Positions 2,507-60,841 of a stretch of DNA of 64,000 bases are shown here, one piece after another. This stretch comes from Longimicrobiales bacterium (GTDB lineage Bacteria > Gemmatimonadota > Gemmatimonadetes > Longimicrobiales > Gaopeijiaceae), in contig OZ252251.1 in NCBI GenBank assembly GCA_965249725.1, forward strand, positions 672,001-736,000, read 5' to 3'. Made by a program: the position numbers and the translations under genes. Below the pieces are notes generated by a model, which saw only the letters and a list, made by a program, of their open reading frames with translations, made no database searches and was not told the DNA's origin. Numbering within the stretch: position 1 is the first letter of the stretch; each line of letters opens with the position of its first letter.

Positions 2507-3586
2507 GTGCCCGTTCGATTCCGTGCCTTGGCTGCCGTCGCCCTTTGCGTGTCCCCCGCTGTTCTGTGGGGTTGGCCTCCCGAAATGGCCAGCGCCCAAG
2601 TCCGCCCCATGCGGACCGAGCAGGAGAGCGGTACCTCCGTGCTTCTTCAGGCTGTGAGCCCGGTGAGTGATCAGATCGTGTGGGCCTCCGGCCACGGAGG
2701 GACCTTCGCCCGGACCACCGACGGGGGGGCGACCTGGACGGCCAGCGTGATGCCCGGAGAGGAGACGCTCCAGTTCCGGGACATCGACGCGTTCAGCGCT
2801 CGCACGGCCTACATGATGAGCGCCGGCGGCGGGACCGTATCGCGGATCTACCGTACCGATAACGGCGGCGACACGTGGGACCTCCAATTCCAGAATGAGC
2901 ATCCCGACGGCTTCTTCGACTGCATGGCTTTCTGGGACGTGGACCACGGCGTCCTGTATGGAGACGAGATCGAGGGGCAGCTCTACATTCTCCGGACCGA
3001 CGATGGGGGAGATTCCTGGAATCGTGTGCCCGCCAACTCGTTGCCTCCCGCACAGGACGGGGAGGGTGGCTTCGCTGCGAGCGGCACGTGCATCGCTACC
3101 GGCGAGGGTGGTCGCGGTTGGATCGCAACGGGTGCCGCGGAGCGCGCTCGGGTGTTGGTGACCGAGGATCAGGGCCGGACGTGGACCGAATCGCCGGTAC
3201 CTGTTCCGGGCGGGAACGCGGCAGGACTGACGACGATCGGCTTCCTCGACAACGACACCGGAATCGCCCTGGGTGGGTTGATCGGGCAGGATACGATGCG
3301 GGTGGACAACGTGACGGTTACGTCCGACGGCGGTCGCACGTGGACGTCAGGGGGCAGATCACGCCTGGCCGGTCCGGTCTACGGATCCTCCTGGGTGCCC
3401 GGGGCCTCGAGCCCCACCGTGTTCGCTGTGGGCCCCGGAGGAGCCGACTACTCGGTGGACGGCGGGCGAAGCTGGCGAGCGGCGGATACACGCACCTACT
3501 GGGCGGTCTCCTTCGTGTCGCCAGGGCGCGGGTGGGCGGTGGGTCCGCGAGGACGGATCACCCGCTTCGGTTTCGGGGGTCGCTGA
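2507..3586 (+). CDS. Secreted BNR/Asp-box (YCF48-like) beta-propeller protein
   Basis: Signal peptide; repeated TxDGGxTW / SxDGGxSW Asp-boxes. Confidence 0.8.
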   Translation: MPVRFRALAAVALCVSPAVLWGWPPEMASAQVRPMRTEQESGTSVLLQAVSPVSDQIVWASGHGGTFARTTDGGATWTASVMPGEETLQFRDIDAFSARTAYMMSAGGGTVSRIYRTDNGGDTWDLQFQNEHPDGFFDCMAFWDVDHGVLYGDEIEGQLYILRTDDGGDSWNRVPANSLPPAQDGEGGFAASGTCIATGEGGRGWIATGAAERARVLVTEDQGRTWTESPVPVPGGNAAGLTTIGFLDNDTGIALGGLIGQDTMRVDNVTVTSDGGRTWTSGGRSRLAGPVYGSSWVPGASSPTVFAVGPGGADYSVDGGRSWRAADTRTYWAVSFVSPGRGWAVGPRGRITRFGFGGR

Positions 3587-53877: not shown

Positions 53878-54028
53878 GTCCGATCGCGACCGGCTGCGTC
53901 CCTCGAGCGCGCGGGCATCACGACATCGACGCCCGGTCGGCAAGCGGTGGGCGATCCACACCTGGTGCGTCACCTCCGTCCTGGCCGCTCGCCGAAGCTC
54001 GCGACGACCTGCCGTGTCCCGGTGTTCA
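53878..54028 (+). pseudogene. Decayed Cro-like small HTH
   Basis: LERAGITTSTPGRQAVGDPHLVRHLRPGRSPKLAT resembles phage-type regulators found before alpA. Confidence 0.35.
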
Positions 54029-54131
54029 CGGAAGCCCGCAGCCGGGCCCGTGTGGCCCCTGTTCCCTCCCGGGGCAACGCGCCCCGGAATCCCTTCCGGA
54101 ACAGAACGGAGGCAGTCCAATGTCAATAGGA

Positions 54132-54347
54132 ATGGAACAGGGCATGGACGCGCCCGTACGCGTCCTGCGGTTGCCCCGAGTGCAGGCCCGCACCGGCCTC
54201 TCGCGGAGCTCCATCTATATGCGAGTGGCTGACAGGAGCTTTCCCCAACCGATCCGCCTCGGCCCCCGAGCCATCGGCTGGATCGAATCGGAGGTCGATC
54301 AGTGGATCCGAGACCAGATCTCCGCAAGCCGCGGCAACGCGGAGTGA
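54132..54347 (+). CDS. alpA: AlpA family regulator/excisionase
   Basis: LRLPRVQARTGLSRSSIY..FPQPIRLGPRAIGWIESEV. Confidence 0.9.
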   Translation: MEQGMDAPVRVLRLPRVQARTGLSRSSIYMRVADRSFPQPIRLGPRAIGWIESEVDQWIRDQISASRGNAE

Positions 54348-54578
54348 TCTTAGACGTAAACCATCCCAATAGTTCGTAGTCAGAGAGGACAGGGGCCATC
54401 CACAACCGTCCTCCGGCACGCCTACGCTTCTTCGCCATTTCGCCGACAGTTCCTTGGCCTGCGTCGCCCACCTGCCTACGCCGATCGGGGTGACACCGCG
54501 CTCGGCGAGGTTGGTTCGGTTCGCCCTACAGCTCGTTCGCTAAGCCCCGCTACAGTCCACTGGATTCCCGTTCAGAAA

Positions 54579-54700
54579 GAGGGGTGTAATGAGGGGATAG
54601 CAGCCAGGTCATAAGCCTTATCTCTATTATTAACAATGCTTTATAATTATATCGGCACGGCTCATGGACGATTGGGCTGCCTATCTGGCCGGGGGGCGTC
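54579..54700 (+). other. Possible att-site remnant plus P4-type integrase C-terminal tail
   Basis: GAGGGG repeated at 12-bp spacing, AT-rich tract, then LMDDWAAYLAG. Confidence 0.4.
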
Positions 54701-55150
54701 GAAACCCGGAGGCCCGTCCGTTCCGGTTAGGGGCTGGCGAGGGGATCCCCCGTGAGAGCCCCGGAGAGCGCCGATCTCCCCGCCAGATGGCGGTCTAGCC
54801 CACCCGATTGTCTCCGGCACCGAACGCCAGCCGGCGCCGGTCCTCCGCCGTCAGCACCGGGTAGGCTTCCGGGTCAGCCGCCCAGGTGCGTTGTCCTCCA
54901 GAGCGGGGAATCACTACCCGCGTCTTCCCGGACCTCCAGGTCACTGACCGGGCGGCGAGTGCACCTCGAGCCGGGCCAGCTCACGCCCGCCGATGATCGG
55001 CCCGCTCGCTGTCCCCGGCGGGAGCTCCACGTCGAGGAGCACCAGGTCGTCCAGGCCCGCGTCTCGGTTGCACCGCCCCGGAGCGCGATCGGCAGCCAAT
55101 CGCGCACAGTCTCGCCCTCCCAGAGGGCGCCACAGGGGAAGCGTCAATCC

Positions 55151-55549
55151 TCAATCAACAGAGTCAAAGGCAATATCGCCATTCTTCCAAAGGGCTATTG
55201 CTACATCCATTTGTCCGTTGCGTTGCTTAATCTGGCCCTGCATGACGCATTCCCACAATTGTGTGGAGTTATCAGACAGATCGGGCGAGGTCTGCAACAA
55301 TTTAACCGCTTCAAGCGCGTAGCCCTTGTTGTCTATAGATCGTGTGTACCTTCCTGGAGGTATACCACGAATCAACCCCTCTTCCGCCAGCCCCAAAAAC
55401 GCGTTGCGTGGACAGCTCTTTTCCCGACTCGCCGTTTGTTCTGAAAAAATTTCCTCAGCGGATGTCTTCCAAGCTGAGATCGGGCATAGGCCGTTTCCCT
55501 CGCGTACTTTCTTAGCCGCACACACTGCAATAGTCCCGTATTTCGACAT
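55151..55549 (-). CDS. DUF6979-like hypothetical protein (lower GC)
   Basis: KSCPRNAFLGLAEEG, NKGYALEAV, NGQMDV; AGAGGAG RBS. Confidence 0.65.
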   Translation of the reverse strand: MSKYGTIAVCAAKKVREGNGLCPISAWKTSAEEIFSEQTASREKSCPRNAFLGLAEEGLIRGIPPGRYTRSIDNKGYALEAVKLLQTSPDLSDNSTQLWECVMQGQIKQRNGQMDVAIALWKNGDIAFDSVD

Positions 55550-55610
55550 GTGCTCTCCTCTTCATTAAATTGTAGTCACGAACTCAGAGATGCTTTACGC
55601 ATACGGCCGC

Positions 55611-55958
55611 TCACGCGGGGATGATGTCATCCACCGCAACCCGAAGAGCATCGGCCAGCTTGCGAAGGGTGTGCACCGACCCGCTGTTGCGTCCCGATTC
55701 GATCTCGACGATCTGCACCCGGTTGACGCCGCAGGCGCGCGCGAGGGCGGACTGAGACAGTCCACGGTATTCGCGCCAGACCCGTAGGGGCGGTTCCCGG
55801 TCGATAAGTCGGTCGGCCACATGCGCCGGCACAAGTTCTTCCGCGCCGCTGGCGATTCTCGCCTCGACGGCCAGCGCCGTCCGTATATCCGTAAAATCTT
55901 CTTCCATGGCACACAGGCGTTCATACTCGACTCTGGGAATCGTCACGGTTTCGTTCAT
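55611..55958 (-). CDS. XRE/HTH antitoxin (HigA-like)
   Basis: VTIPRVEYERL, PLRVWREYRGLSQSALARACGV..IESG. Confidence 0.85.
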   Translation of the reverse strand: MNETVTIPRVEYERLCAMEEDFTDIRTALAVEARIASGAEELVPAHVADRLIDREPPLRVWREYRGLSQSALARACGVNRVQIVEIESGRNSGSVHTLRKLADALRVAVDDIIPA

Positions 55959-55963
55959 GATAT

Positions 55964-56218
55964 TCACTCCTTGTAGGCGCTGCCGCGGCTGGCCACATGC
56001 AGAACTCGCAGCACGTTTCCATCTCTCATTACTACGCGCCAGTCTCCCACCCGAAGGCGCACCAGTCCGTCTTGGCCCTTCAGACGTATGACGTTGTTGG
56101 CCTGCGACGCCGGGTCATCGGCGTAAGCCCGGATCTTGTCCCGGAGACGCTCCGCCCAATTACGGGGCATCTGGGTCAGGACCTTCAGAGCCGTACGGCT
56201 GTAGGCAATTTCTTTCAC
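55964..56218 (-). CDS. RelE/ParE family toxin (toxin-first order)
   Basis: IAYSRTALKVL, RLRVGDWRVV, SRGSAY. Confidence 0.85.
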   Translation of the reverse strand: MKEIAYSRTALKVLTQMPRNWAERLRDKIRAYADDPASQANNVIRLKGQDGLVRLRVGDWRVVMRDGNVLRVLHVASRGSAYKE

Positions 56219-56253
56219 AGCAAGTATGTAGCGCAAGACTACGATGTAGTCAA
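56219..56253 (-). promoter_or_regulatory. TA promoter/operator, likely leaderless transcript
   Basis: TTGACT-17bp-TACATA-6bp-GTG; palindrome GACTAC-gat-GTAGTC (56237-56251) overlaps the -35. Confidence 0.6.
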
Positions 56254-56765
56254 TAACGACAATGCCCCCTCCGGCGTTACTGTCGTTCGGAAGCTCTGCC
56301 CTGAGCACGTCCATGTCCCTGGAGCGCGACGTTCAGGGACATGACCGCCGCTCCCCGGCACCTGACGGGCCATGCATCGCCTCCTTGGTGCGCCTTGCCG
56401 CCTCGGCAAGGGTGCTCCGCCGCGCAGTGCGGGGGGTCCTCTCCGGGGGGGCACTACTCCATCACAGTGTCCGGACGCGCTCCCGGTCGCCGGCCAAGCT
56501 AGGGTGCCAAGTCGAGCCGAACAGGAAGCCGCGAAGCTCCCGGACGATCGTGACAAGCTCCCCGTCGATTTCCGGGAGGCTGTGGGGGGGGCAGGATGCA
56601 CGCGCCGATGTAGACAGCCAGGTCCCCGAGGGGTGCGCCTCGACCTCAGGCCGTGGTGGGGATGCCGTGGGAGTCCACGAGCGTATCTCGCCAGCGAGCG
56701 TCGAGACGCGGAGGCCGGACCGATCCGCTGAGGAGCCGGCTCATGACCCGTATGTGGACGCCCCC

Positions 56766-57042
56766 CGGGTTGGCAAGCCTGACTTCGAACCGAGGTTGGT
56801 GGCAATCAGGTCCGGTACTGTCGTATGTCCGGCCTCTTGATGCAGCCCTCGTTGGCTGCGGGCCCGTATGGTGTTCGTGAGATCGGATCCAAATCGTTAG
56901 GTCGGGCTCGGTGGCCCTTCGGGTCATCCTGGTGTTTCCGATCCCGTCTTCCAGACCGTTTGCCCTTACCCGTTCTTGCGTCCTGCTGCCCACATCTCCC
57001 AGCAGCTTTCTCTGTTTGCGCTTCTCTCCTTTCGTTGGCCGG
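56766..57042 (-). ncRNA. Bridge/seek RNA region of the IS1111-type element (ends not defined)
   Basis: Two stem-enclosed internal loops whose segments match the target flanks and the element ends. Confidence 0.75.
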
Positions 57043-58065
57043 TCAGGCGGCAGCGCGAACCCGATGGATCTCCTTCTTCGTGGTCAGCGCCCAGACCATC
57101 CGCGCCGTCCTGTTGGCGAGCACCACCGCGACCAGCATCTTCGGCTTGCGTGCCAGCATCCTGGCCAGCCACGGATCCGTGATCTCGCCGCGCCGGATCG
57201 CGTTTTGGACGACCGCCATGGCTCCCGTGATCAAGAGCCGCCGGAGATCGCGCTGGCCCATCTTCGATATCCTGCCCAGCCTCGGCTTGCCGCCGGTGGT
57301 GTGCTGCCGCGGCACAAGGCCGAGCCAGGCCGAGAAGTCGCGCCCGCGCCGGAAGCTCTCCATCGGCGGTGCGAAGGCCTGCAGTGCCATCGCGGTGATC
57401 GGTCCGATTCCGGGGATTGTCATCAGCCGCGCCGTCTCTTCGCGCTCCCGTGTGCTCGCCCGGAGCTTCCTGTCGAGTCCATCGATCTTCTCATCGAGCT
57501 CGTCGATCGGCCCGAGCAGCAGCCATCCCAGCTCGACGACCGCCTCCGGCAGGCCGGCGTCCCCGTCTTCCAGCACCCGGGCCAGTTGCCCGATCCGGGC
57601 CCTGCCCTGCGGAGCAACAACTCCGAACTCGGCGAGGTGACCCCGAAGGGCATTGATCGTCTGTGTGCGCTGGCGCACCAGCAGGTCACGCGTGCGAAAG
57701 AGCATCCCCTGACCCTGCTGCGCTTCGGTCTTGACCGCCACGAAGCGCATGGTCGGACGCTGTGCGGCTTCCGAGATCGCCTCCGCGTCCGCCGTGTCGT
57801 TCTTCTGCCTCTTGACGAAGGGCTTCACGTAGATCGGTGGAACCAGCCTCACCTCGTGACCGAGCGCCACGATCTCCCGGCCCCAGTAATGGGCGCTGGC
57901 GCACGCCTCCATCGCCACCGTGCAAGGCGGCTGCGAGGCGAGAAAACTCAGCAGCTTCCCGCGGCTCAGCTTCTTGCGGTACGCTACCGACCCGTCCGCC
58001 TTCGCCCCGTGTACCTGAAAGCTGCGCTTTGCCAGATCGATCCCGATGATGCTAACCTCCTCCAT
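57043..58065 (-). CDS. IS110 family recombinase/transposase
   Basis: IGIDLAK, MEAC, KNDTADA (DEDD), IPGIGPITA, GLVPRQHTTGGK, LANRTAR. Confidence 0.95.
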   Translation of the reverse strand: MEEVSIIGIDLAKRSFQVHGAKADGSVAYRKKLSRGKLLSFLASQPPCTVAMEACASAHYWGREIVALGHEVRLVPPIYVKPFVKRQKNDTADAEAISEAAQRPTMRFVAVKTEAQQGQGMLFRTRDLLVRQRTQTINALRGHLAEFGVVAPQGRARIGQLARVLEDGDAGLPEAVVELGWLLLGPIDELDEKIDGLDRKLRASTREREETARLMTIPGIGPITAMALQAFAPPMESFRRGRDFSAWLGLVPRQHTTGGKPRLGRISKMGQRDLRRLLITGAMAVVQNAIRRGEITDPWLARMLARKPKMLVAVVLANRTARMVWALTTKKEIHRVRAAA

Positions 58066-58597
58066 TGGATGCCTCCTCCCTCAGATGGTCGAAAAATGCT
58101 CAGTACCATCTTGGCACATTGCGATGCCGCCGGGAGGGGGCGTCCACCCCATCGTTAGCAGTCATGAGCCAGCCCACGCAATGTTGAACATTGCGATCTG
58201 GCGAGGGGATGCTGCGCCCCCCTTCGAACCCCCGGCTTCCTGCGCCGCTGCCGGGGCAGCGGGCGGGCGGGGGGCGCCGCCCCCCGAACCCCGTCGCCGG
58301 TGCGCTCATGGCTGACCGCCGCACCGCCACCGCGCTCAGCGGCGCTCGATGTCCTTCCCGCACGGGACCCCTGGTCGGGAGCCCCGGATCGGCACCGCGC
58401 CCCCCGCGCCCGCGCCGGAAGCGCGAGGACGCCAGCCACATACGGACGCGGTGGCCTGCACATGGAAGCAAGCCTTTCGGTGTGCATGCACCCCATTTGT
58501 CTCATGTGCACTTGCCGATCGGCACCGACCCTCGCCGATCCGCGTCCAAGATCCGCCTCCAAGGAGCTGTCTCAAACGCCAGGTCGGGAAGCCCTCG

Positions 58598-58862
58598 ATT
58601 CTCCGCGTAGATGTGGTTGATCCCCTACCGGTCGCGGATGATCTCGACGGGAGCCTGGATGCCGGGGAGGGTGAGGGTGGTGGTGGCGGCGAGGCCGGAC
58701 GGGGTGGCGGTGAGAGCCGCCACGCCCGGCCCTGCCAGTGGGGGCCGCAACGTCAGCCCTGGCGGCATCGGCTGGTGGCGGGGACTGGGCGGTGGTGGGG
58801 GCGGGCGCCGCGAGCAGGTCTCCCAGGGCGAGCAGGGCCCGTGGGTGCTGACAGTTCGGCAT
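58598..58862 (-). pseudogene. Penicillin acylase family N-terminal remnant
   Basis: LPGIQAPVEIIRDR*GINHIYAEN (stop at the usual Trp), frameshifted signal region, truncated. Confidence 0.65.
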
Positions 58863-59186
58863 CGTGAGAGGATCTCCCGTTCTGGAGAGGATCGCGGTTG
58901 AAGCTGGAGCCGCATGCGTGGGCAAACACCTGACTGTGGCAGGTAAGGCGCACCGTGCCTGTCGCGCTTCCCCGCCACCCTGTGCAGAGAATCACGCTGC
59001 AAACCGAACAGTGGTACGCGAGATGCGAACAGGGGCGTCCCGGTTTGCGGATTCCACGGTCGCTCCCTAGCATAGAGGTAACTAGCGCCACCATGACCAC
59101 CCGGGTCGACCGGGGAGCCGACGGTGGTATGCGCTCCGCTTGCCGAATAGGGCCAAGCAGTTCTCATCACCAGGGGGGACCAGACC

Positions 59187-59738
59187 ATGAGGAAGCCCAT
59201 CTTCACATCCTTCGCGCTTCTGGCATTTCTCAGCGTGACCGCCTGCGAGCAGGGCACGCAGGACCAGAGCATGGAAGACCTGAGCCCGGCAAGCGTCGAC
59301 CACTACCTGCAAGCTTCCTCGTCGGTGACGCAGTGCCCGGGGACGGCGCCCGAGGTGGTCGCCATGGACATCACGGACGCCGCCAGCGGAGTCGCCATTG
59401 CGGCCAACCAGATCACGGTGTCCGAAGCCGGAGCGTATCTCATCGTGGCCGCGCCCCAGGTCGGTCGTGAGGGCGGCGGTCCTTACGGCTGCTTCGATCT
59501 CTGGCTGCGCGTCAACGGGACCGATGTGGCCAACTCCAACGTCCAGCTCTGCCAGGACGAGGGGAGCATGGCCAAGGACGTCATCATCTCGCAGGGCATT
59601 GTGCCACTCGAGGCGGGTGACATGGTCGAGGTCATGATGTCCGTCAGCAATCCGGAGGCGAACATCTGCATCGAGGCGATTCAGCCGGAGGGCGAACCGC
59701 TGGTGCCTGCGATCATCTTCTCGATGATCAAGTACTAG
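59187..59738 (+). CDS. Lipoprotein with a C1q/TNF-like (BclA C-terminal-like) domain
   Basis: VTAC lipobox; ITVSEAGAYLI, WLRVNG, IVPLEAGDMVEV. Confidence 0.6.
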   Translation: MRKPIFTSFALLAFLSVTACEQGTQDQSMEDLSPASVDHYLQASSSVTQCPGTAPEVVAMDITDAASGVAIAANQITVSEAGAYLIVAAPQVGREGGGPYGCFDLWLRVNGTDVANSNVQLCQDEGSMAKDVIISQGIVPLEAGDMVEVMMSVSNPEANICIEAIQPEGEPLVPAIIFSMIKY

Positions 59739-60280: not shown

Positions 60281-60841
60281 ATGGGGAAGCTGTTGCTCCT
60301 GGTCGCCGCCGTGCTCGCGGCGGCCGACGCAAGTGCGCAGACCACTTGGCGGGGATTGGTGGTTGCACCAGAGCACCGTTGTTCACCGTACCGGTCTGGC
60401 GACTACAGCTATCCGCAGTCCGTCCAGGCCTCGATCGTCCGAGAGTTGGGCGGCATCTACTCGCCGTACACCGGAGAGCGGTTCGCGTCAATGGGTCAGA
60501 CGGATATCGAGCACACGGTGGCTCGTAGCGAAGCCCATGATTCCGGTCTTTGCGCGGCGAGCCGCGAAACACGCCGGGCGTTCGCTCGGGACTTGCTGAA
60601 CCTCACGCTGGCCAGTCCGGGACTGAACCGGGGAGCCAAGGGTGCGGATGATGCCGCCGAATGGATGCCTCAGCGTAACCGCTGCTGGTTTGCAGACCGA
60701 GTTGTGGCGGTCCGTCGGCGGTGGGGGCTGACCATTGACGCCCGAGAGGCAAACGCCCTGGAGGCCGTACTGGCCGGCTGCACGACTACGGCTCTGGAGG
60801 CTGCCGGGGGCGGCGCCTTCGCGCCCATTGGTCATGCCTAG
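60281..60841 (+). CDS. Secreted HNH (DUF1524-like) nuclease, probably C-terminally truncated by IS1595
   Basis: Signal peptide, DIEHTVARSEAHDSG, NLTLA..NRGAKG..AEWMP; its stop lies inside the IS end. Confidence 0.75.
   Translation: MGKLLLLVAAVLAAADASAQTTWRGLVVAPEHRCSPYRSGDYSYPQSVQASIVRELGGIYSPYTGERFASMGQTDIEHTVARSEAHDSGLCAASRETRRAFARDLLNLTLASPGLNRGAKGADDAAEWMPQRNRCWFADRVVAVRRRWGLTIDAREANALEAVLAGCTTTALEAAGGGAFAPIGHA

Follow-up and report, generated by a model that had tools for sequence, protein, structure and literature searches.

Bridge RNAs have been predicted in 93.0% of the IS1111 entries of ISfinder, where they are located in the right end (RE) of the element (Durrant 2024, PMC11208160), and function was demonstrated for four IS1111 members by Siddiquee et al. 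(2024, PMC11187229). In these papers, IS1111 transposases are described as proteins of 330–350 amino acids (aa) with the motif GL-P----S(t)G, TG instead of SG being a listed variant (PMC11187229), the subterminal inverted repeats as 7–17 bp long (PMC11208160), and the seekRNAs as carrying the match to the top strand of the target 5' of the match to the bottom strand, the reverse of the IS110 type (PMC11187229). Here, a locus of this kind was analyzed in a 64,000-nt stretch of a Longimicrobiales genome (contig OZ252251.1, positions 672,001–736,000; hereafter the window, numbered from its first base). A reading made from the sequence alone (the original prediction) had placed at 56738–58170 an IS1111-type element whose bridge-RNA guides match its own insertion site. 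We consider it very probable that this is an intact insertion sequence (IS) of the IS1111 group (IS110 family), with a DEDD/Thr recombinase guided by the element's own RNA of ~165 nt from the right end. Every IS1111-group and bridge/seekRNA feature that could be tested was found in it and, because the results of Durrant and of Siddiquee et al. precede the present ones, it is a new member of a class known since 2024.

Element boundaries and anatomy

Window positions 56500–58400 were read directly to verify strings and coordinates. The insertion sequence consists of 1,402 bp plus a duplicated CG core and spans 56751–58154. Its body (56751–58152, minus strand) lies between two copies of the core, one at the RE junction (56749–56750) and one at the left end (LE) junction (58153–58154), so that LE is at 58152 and RE at 56751 in transposase orientation. 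The ends carry motifs common to relatives (ATGGGGTGGACGCC at LE, GGGGGCGTCCACATA at RE), and in the same orientation the junctions read CTAACG|ATGGGGTGGACGCCCCC and GGGGGCGTCCACATA|CGGGTCAT. All strings quoted in the original prediction stand at their plus-strand places: the left flank ATGACCCG at 56743–56750, CGTTAG at 58153–58158 and 56895–56900, CGGGTCAT at 56920–56927, TCGTATGT at 56821–56828, CGTATGGTG at 56865–56873, the stem GATCGGA (56881–56887)/TCCGATC (56937–56943), and the GGGC/GCCC hairpin (56904–56917) between both flank matches. Its strand frame needed amendment: the strings are right for the plus strand, but the RNA carries their reverse complements, because transposase and RNA lie on the minus strand.

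Deletion of 56751–58154 restores ATGACC-CG-TTAG, as had been claimed, and the same sequence stands uninterrupted at G002:C6:13922–13948 in a genome of the same genus. Uninterrupted sites, each with a single CG, were found in three related genomes (G002, G005 and G001); the element boundaries are therefore fixed independently, the G002 site being the exact one.

The subterminal inverted repeats are a perfect 12 bp, within the length range of the IS1111 group. On the plus strand the left repeat reads GGGGGCGTCCAC (58136–58147, 5 nt inside the LE tip) and the right repeat GTGGACGCCCCC (56754–56765, 3 nt inside the RE tip); the two are complementary, and the copies of relatives change in step (GGACGCCTCC/GGAGGCGTCC; GGATGCCCCC/GGGGGCATCC). 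The sole long real gene inside the element is a minus-strand open reading frame (ORF) at 58065–57043, with 292 nt of non-coding DNA downstream (57042–56751) vs. 87 nt upstream (58066–58152), the arrangement of the IS1111 group.

Relatives were taken from a scan of genome contigs as 80 loci with 57–94% identity, of 538 confirmed. Their hosts are Longimicrobiales, other Gemmatimonadota, Vicinamibacterales and many Alphaproteobacteria, with single records from Chloroflexota, Binatia, Acidimicrobiia and Gammaproteobacteria. Counting the window with the 80 loci, 71 of 81 sequences yielded a pair of end motifs; motif-based calling gave spurious ends in 11 loci and none in 10. Core copies were compared among 53 loci, where CG/CG was found 31 times, TG/TG 16 times and CG/CA 5 times, one right flank running off the contig end. 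The CG core named for this copy was thus correct.

Insertion site

In transposase orientation the target reads CTAA-CG-GGTCAT. It belongs to a hairpin that the insertion has split into a left arm (GGCTCATGAC, 56738–56747, plus strand) and a right arm (GTCATGAGCC, 58161–58170, plus strand), and that is intact in relatives. Directly before it, a P4-like tyrosine integrase gene survives as no more than its final codons (…AYLASERRDAEAGPIR, stop; 56681–56731, plus strand). The last 70 nt of the left flank matched G005:C10:71987–72056 at 89%, there the terminal part of a 397-aa ORF with the domains Arm-DNA-bind_3, Phage_int_M and Phage_integrase; in both G005 and G002 these 70 nt continue directly into the right-flank hairpin arm. 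A 27-nt pattern of the intact hairpin was present in 3 of 40 related genomes, and the reversed-pattern control gave no match. G002 has one intact hairpin, with the exact ATGACCCGTTAG; G005 has one and G001 two, each with one change in the 12-bp site. All four lie at most about 90 nt downstream of a homologue of the 397-aa tyrosine integrase. Contigs of two sequencing runs stop at 56751 and then continue as the G005-type uninterrupted site.

Hairpin targets are not general in the clade: 7 of 35 rejoined sites fell in the best 10% of their own flank-window folds, with a median percentile of 0.45 (the window site, which had no control windows, was left out of this test). A tRNA-derived attachment site in the right flank was also considered and rejected, as ARAGORN found no tRNA in 54000–59500.

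Structure and covariation of the predicted guide RNA

The last 215–225 nt of the elements were aligned with MAFFT. The aligned right ends form a strongly conserved scaffold broken by two hypervariable segments, and the RNAalifold consensus is a three-way junction. In the window, the core of the bridge/seek RNA gene (56809–56971, minus strand) runs from the conserved GGGUAAGGGCAAAC to the 3' strand of the closing helix P1, a long-range pairing of 56953–56957 with 56809–56813. The first, target-binding arm (56880–56944, minus strand) has an 8+3-bp stem (56937–56944/56880–56887 and 56930–56932/56889–56891), a large internal loop and a small apical hairpin at 56904–56917. The second is hairpin P3 (56831–56864, minus strand; GGCC/GGCC and GCAGC/GCUGC), and the single strands on either side of it make a second loop, the donor loop.

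Base pairs were counted on 44 distinct sequences (29 pairs, 1,273 cells), and 97.1% of the cells were paired. Compensatory, both-side changes occurred in 17 of the 29 pairs, including 7 of 8 pairs in the long stem and 2 of 3 in the short stem of the target arm. Such changes filled 96 cells vs. 22 ± 4.8 in shuffles, none of 500 shuffles attained any of five pairing measures, and sliding the partners by 1–3 columns reduced pairing to 20–46%. The shuffle control has a known weakness with related sequences; the two count-based measures are robust, and both were exceeded.

A covariance model (R1) derived from the alignment matched the window at 56751–56979 (185 bits, E = 1.3e-47). The search with this model, which the original prediction had suggested, identified exactly two places in the 4.16-Mb genome, the window and an orphan at C3:2826889–2827115 (102 bits). 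Outside its building set the model detected the RNA in 24 of 28 loci. The four loci with no match at E ≤ 1e-15 were L057 and L082, which run off the contig soon after the gene, L019, which matches residues 1–314 only, and L016, with only a 19-bit partial match. Folding, likewise suggested, was uninformative by itself when applied to the 292-nt region as a single sequence (z = -1.36), but the structure based on the alignment was supported.

Variation in right-end architecture was seen in some relatives. In Vicinamibacterales/Acidobacteria elements (L027, L040–L046, L049 and L080) the RNA scaffold stops ~220–300 nt before the true RE tip, and extra DNA separates the RNA gene from the terminal 75 nt. 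The tip appeared as a separate weak model match at ~3010–3087 in L040–L045, 3652–3728 in L049 and 2880–3024 in L080; the model output listed none for L027 or L046. L010 and L078 have short RE-tip duplications, and L030 has a second RE motif and RNA module after a second transposase fragment, ~1,100 nt downstream.

Target guides and flanking sequences

The flank-matching segments that the original prediction had seen inside the stem are two guides to opposite target strands that overlap at the core, 8 and 6 nt long and free of mismatches. The 5' target guide, RNA AUGACCCG (56920–56927, minus strand), is complementary to the top strand (transposase orientation) of core and right target, CG-GGTCAT. 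The 3' target guide, RNA CUAACG (56895–56900, minus strand), is identical to the top strand of left target and core, CTAA-CG, and would pair with the bottom strand. The top-strand match comes first, as reported for IS1111 seekRNAs.

The original prediction was to fall if the loop segments did not covary with the targets. For this comparison, the 10 loci without an end pair and the 11 with spurious ends were removed, as were 7 long elements (last 215 nt unalignable), duplicates and loci with incomplete flanks, which left 38 distinct guide pairs. The mean longest common string with the own flank was 5.68 nt for the 5' guide (3.28 ± 0.16 with flanks shuffled among loci) and 6.53 nt for the 3' guide (3.34 ± 0.17). 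Identity in a fixed register over the 7 positions upstream of the core was 5.11 vs. 2.07 when shuffled. None of 5000 flank shuffles attained the observed value in any of the three measures; the loop segments track the flanks across the 38 variants. The 7 long elements were inspected by eye with the true RE tip, and a 5'-guide match of 6–7 nt was seen in L040, L041, L045 and L046 and not in L027, L043 and L044.

Donor loop and element ends

A second loop had been said to match the predicted circle junction, and it does. The 3' strand of the donor loop, RNA GGACAUACGACAGUACC (56814–56830, minus strand), includes ACAUACGA, a copy of the final 5 RE bases followed by the core and the first base of LE. 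The 53 loci supply 17 distinct guide/donor combinations, and this 8-nt identity was complete in 13 of them (donor shuffles: mean 1.9, maximum 7) and differed by one base in the other 4, and the strand follows CG-to-TG core switches as well as ACATA/ATAGA/ACACA/ATACA changes of the tip.

The 'imperfect partner' CGTATGGTG proved to be the conserved 5' strand of the donor loop (RNA CACGAACACCAUACG, 56865–56879, minus strand), in which CCAU-A-CG pairs discontiguously with LE start and core: an extra A interrupts the pairing (CCAU-A-CG vs. CCCAT-CG). A comparable discontiguous pairing of right-donor guide and right donor (RDG-RD) is described for IS621 (Durrant 2024, PMC11208160).

Transposase

The transposase/recombinase gene (57043–58065, minus strand) encodes 340 aa, a length typical of the IS1111 group. 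Pfam matches were DEDD_Tnp_IS110 (PF01548, 2.1e-16) and Transposase_20 (PF02371, 2e-23), the domains of that group. In the alignment to IS621 (chain 8wt6_A), D10, E53, D90, D93 and T257-G258 fall on IS621 D11, E60, D102, D105 and S241-G242, the catalytic residues being those given in PMC11208158. GLVPRQHTTG at residues 249–258 fits the IS1111 motif. A phmmer search of PDB sequences returned only ISCro4 (9t56, E 2e-12) and IS621 (8wt6, E 7e-10), mainly through the C-terminal domain. In tblastn against plasmids, residues 1–334 (98% of the protein) were 40.9% identical to IS4321/IS5075 family genes, and identity reached 68% to unnamed 'IS110 family transposase' genes of Alphaproteobacteria.

Copy number, expression and activity

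Several observations weigh against a functional RNA-guided element. Guides and ends do not agree fully in every relative: the match of the 5' guide reaches at least 6 nt in only 19 of 38 variants (the 3' guide in 29, both sides in 16), 6 variants (L023, L047, L048, L069, L078 and L084) have no match of at least 6 nt on either side, and the 5' donor strand matches LE only partly, with xCCAT reverse-complementary to the initial 5 bases of LE in 10 of the 17 combinations. An Rfam scan of 56400–58500 with E up to 1 yielded no family, only a chance microRNA-like match of 22 bits, and a sigma-70-like promoter scan of 56600–58300 returned 0 sites. Run X1, labelled an RNA library (0.04 of sampled words), gave only contigs of 101–604 nt, 90–99% alike and none tied to this copy, with 43 of 68 at 90–95% likeness. 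The run contigs contained no circle junction or precise excision. Finally, the genome has only a single full copy.

Copy number was determined genome-wide: at the DNA level, one full copy turned up together with a partial match of 170 nt, and the protein search otherwise only IS110-family genes of 29–32% identity. Comparison of the targets of other copies, which the original prediction had proposed, found the genome without other full copies. A second exact 12-bp target was likewise missing (0 sites in 4.16 Mb; three sites with one mismatch), which fits a single copy.

A rival reading is that the element, although correctly assigned to IS1111, is a relic that can no longer move: one old insertion that has survived by chance and whose RNA or protein no longer functions. 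The one full copy accompanied by one decayed orphan RNA/RE module on another contig, the missing circle-junction or precise-excision contig, and surroundings that are a graveyard of integrase remnants would all suit such a history. However, the reading frame is complete and keeps all five catalytic positions, the two ends and the two subterminal repeats are free of defects, the target guides match the flanks without mismatch, and all 29 consensus pairs can form in the window copy; moreover, a genome without a second exact target would hold one copy even if the element were active. We therefore regard a relic as unlikely, though an explanation to be taken seriously.

The orphan bridge-RNA/right-end module (G000:C3:2826889–2827115; L002 1500–1726, minus strand) shares 82% identity across 170 nt. 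Neither a transposase gene nor a left end lies close by, its guide segments differ, its P3 helix is disrupted and the match to its own flanks spans only 4–5 nt; the module looks like the decaying relic of a sibling element.

As to promoters, TTGCCA (56771–56776, minus strand), within a CTTGC motif that is near-invariant in the 44-sequence alignment and 20 nt from the RE tip, is a possible -35 element. With TA-CG-AT across the circle junction as a candidate -10, a promoter may be complete only at the junction, which would fit the IS621-type junction promoter described in PMC11208158. A single plus-strand terminator-like site inside the guide loop is not meaningful, and a depth-2 joint from 56740 to 58204 in the run contigs is not an element boundary.

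Proposed mechanism and remaining alternatives

The 'complete natural RNA-guided recombinase' of the original prediction is well supported by anatomy and homology, not by assay. Anatomy, boundaries, uninterrupted sites, covariation of guides with flanks and ends, compensatory pairs and conserved catalytic residues were observed directly. By analogy with the published relatives, the RNA would be transcribed and bound by the recombinase, and circle formation and strand-exchange chemistry would follow. The element would be excised as a circle joining RE and LE at one CG. The ~165-nt RNA from its right end would fold into the three-way junction and be bound by the recombinase; the target loop would pair with both strands of CTAA-CG-GGTCAT, and the second-arm loop likewise with the joined ends of the excised circle (ACATA-CG-ATGG). 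The recombinase would then swap strands at the shared CG core, leaving the circle inserted and the CG duplicated. The site struck by the present copy is the loop and 3' arm of a hairpin located after the stop codon of the P4-like integrase gene of an integrative element.

That the flank-matching segments act instead as DNA, as protein-recognised or strand-pairing sites of the right end with no guide RNA, agrees with the lack of an RNA shown here and of a promoter found, but is very improbable: pairing is kept through the 96 both-side-changed cells, including G-U pairs (11 GU at column pair 47:114), which suits RNA more than duplex DNA, and four IS1111 members are described in PMC11187229 as making a transposase-bound RNA from the corresponding region that is needed for transposition. 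Finally, there is next to no chance that the loop/flank matches are a coincidence or by-product of a palindromic target, since, short as they are (8 and 6 nt) and raised in odds by a hairpin with 10-bp arms, in relatives the matches recur at the same two positions of the alignment although the flanks are unrelated, most targets of these relatives are not hairpins, and the flank-shuffle test rejects this reading.

Insertions into sibling elements and genomic surroundings

L102 (G002:C7, ~1,517 bp, same-genus genome) is a 63%-identical IS1111 relative at AACATTG-CG-TGGGCTGGCTC, a target sequence that corresponds to window CG 58177–58178, 24 bp from the window insertion point. Two differently programmed relatives have thus struck one conserved sequence at neighbouring positions; the hairpin there follows a P4-like integrase gene where uninterrupted.

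In L020 (1340–2900) an IS1111 relative is nested in a sibling, where it splits exactly the conserved motif GGGCAAA-CG-GTCAA that stands at the beginning of the bridge-RNA gene. The guides of the nested relative, UUGACCG and GCAAACG, fit this insertion site, and the sibling persists as a transposase fragment upstream (560–1327) and the remainder of its RNA/RE module downstream (2794–3000). In L031 (1205–2860) a relative lies inside the right-end subterminal repeat of a sibling (GGGGG-CG-TCCATAGA), and its 5' guide UCUAUGGAC has a 9-nt match to the insertion site. In L034 (2669–3996) the right end of an IS1111 relative is followed at once by a perfect (100%) tandem array, 10.1 copies of a 131-bp unit, which extends to the locus end. 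The unit reaches from the DNA that specifies the 5' strand of the donor loop as far as the RE tip. The array might be a footprint of repeated recombination between RE tip and guide-encoding DNA, for which the 'half-match' recombination described in bioRxiv 10.64898/2026.08.31.748434 offers a comparison.

A reading of the clade as a natural library of one three-way-junction scaffold, reprogrammed many times and partly against other mobile elements, is speculative and, in our judgment, rather doubtful. If sibling targeting were general, IS1111 elements would compete through RNA-guided insertion into each other's essential parts, and the 131-bp arrays of L034 would be half-site recombination footprints at donor-guide-encoding DNA.

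The window element lies between a ParE/helix-turn-helix (HTH) toxin-antitoxin pair (55611–56314) and unannotated DNA. A second integrase C-terminus remnant, 68% identical over 22 aa to the G005 integrase, occurs at 54661–54726 in an AT-richer stretch; together with the remnant at 56681–56731 it marks a region of decayed integrative elements. From 58189 on, the right flank agrees at 99% with a genome of the same genus that has a different sequence upstream, which places the copy on the border of a variable, island-like stretch. Within 58166–58600, two parts of the right flank (~58166–58330 and 58380–58600) recur at 74–91% identity in several places of this and related genomes and represent a dispersed GC-rich repeat. 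Accessory genes nearby are a DUF6979 protein gene and an HTH antitoxin-like gene overlapping a ParE-like toxin gene (55151–56314), and a gene with a GmrSD_C nuclease domain (60281–60841).

Comparison with known systems

A bridge-RNA element could be read correctly from raw sequence. For its host it amounts to one unremarkable insertion where integrative elements have decayed. The known IS1111-type systems gain a clearly delimited one from uncultured bacteria, in which the core is CG or TG and the nucleophile position holds threonine, and the 38 natural guide variants on one scaffold reveal which RNA positions are free and which are fixed, a set that may help the engineering of IS1111-type recombinases, less studied than IS621. 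A full-text literature search brought up neither this clade nor a hairpin target linked to an integrase; a close ISfinder entry may exist.

With ISEc11, ISPa11, ISKpn4 and ISPst6 (IS1111 seekRNA, PMC11187229) the element shares the DEDD transposase of 330–350 aa with its GL-P----S(t)G motif, the subterminal inverted repeats, the long non-coding region downstream of tnp, and an RNA layout in which the top-strand match lies 5' of the bottom-strand match and the two overlap at the insertion point. The element differs from these four in its source, genomes of uncultured bacteria, in having Thr and not Ser at the nucleophile position (a variant listed in PMC11187229), and in a target that is a hairpin behind an integrase gene. 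The closest named relatives found, IS4321/IS5075 (IS1111 group), were compared by protein (40.9% aa identity over 98% of its length) and have a different target and host range.

IS621 and ISCro4 (Durrant 2024, PMC11208160; Hiraizumi 2024, PMC11208158; PDB 8wt6, 9t56) have the same two loops, each with two opposite-strand guides overlapping at a 2-nt core, the same donor loop on the RE-LE junction with a discontiguous right-donor guide, and the same conserved DEDD and hydroxyl residues. In the present element, by contrast, protein similarity to them is only distant (E 7e-10 and 2e-12), the RNA is encoded at the right instead of the left end, its guides come in the opposite order, the subterminal repeats measure 12 bp as against 2–3 bp, the core is CG (or TG) and not CT, and both loops are closed by a common long-range helix. 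Two elements of Pseudomonas putida share single features: ISPpu10, where a target stem-loop is reported to be a second layer of specificity (bioRxiv 10.64898/2026.03.19.712850), and ISPpu9, with stand-alone downstream small-RNA modules (PMC12288879). A stem-loop target and an orphan RNA/RE module occur here too; unlike in ISPpu10, however, stem-loop targets are not general in this clade, and unlike the ISPpu9 modules the orphan is decayed, with P3 disrupted and guides that match its flank poorly.

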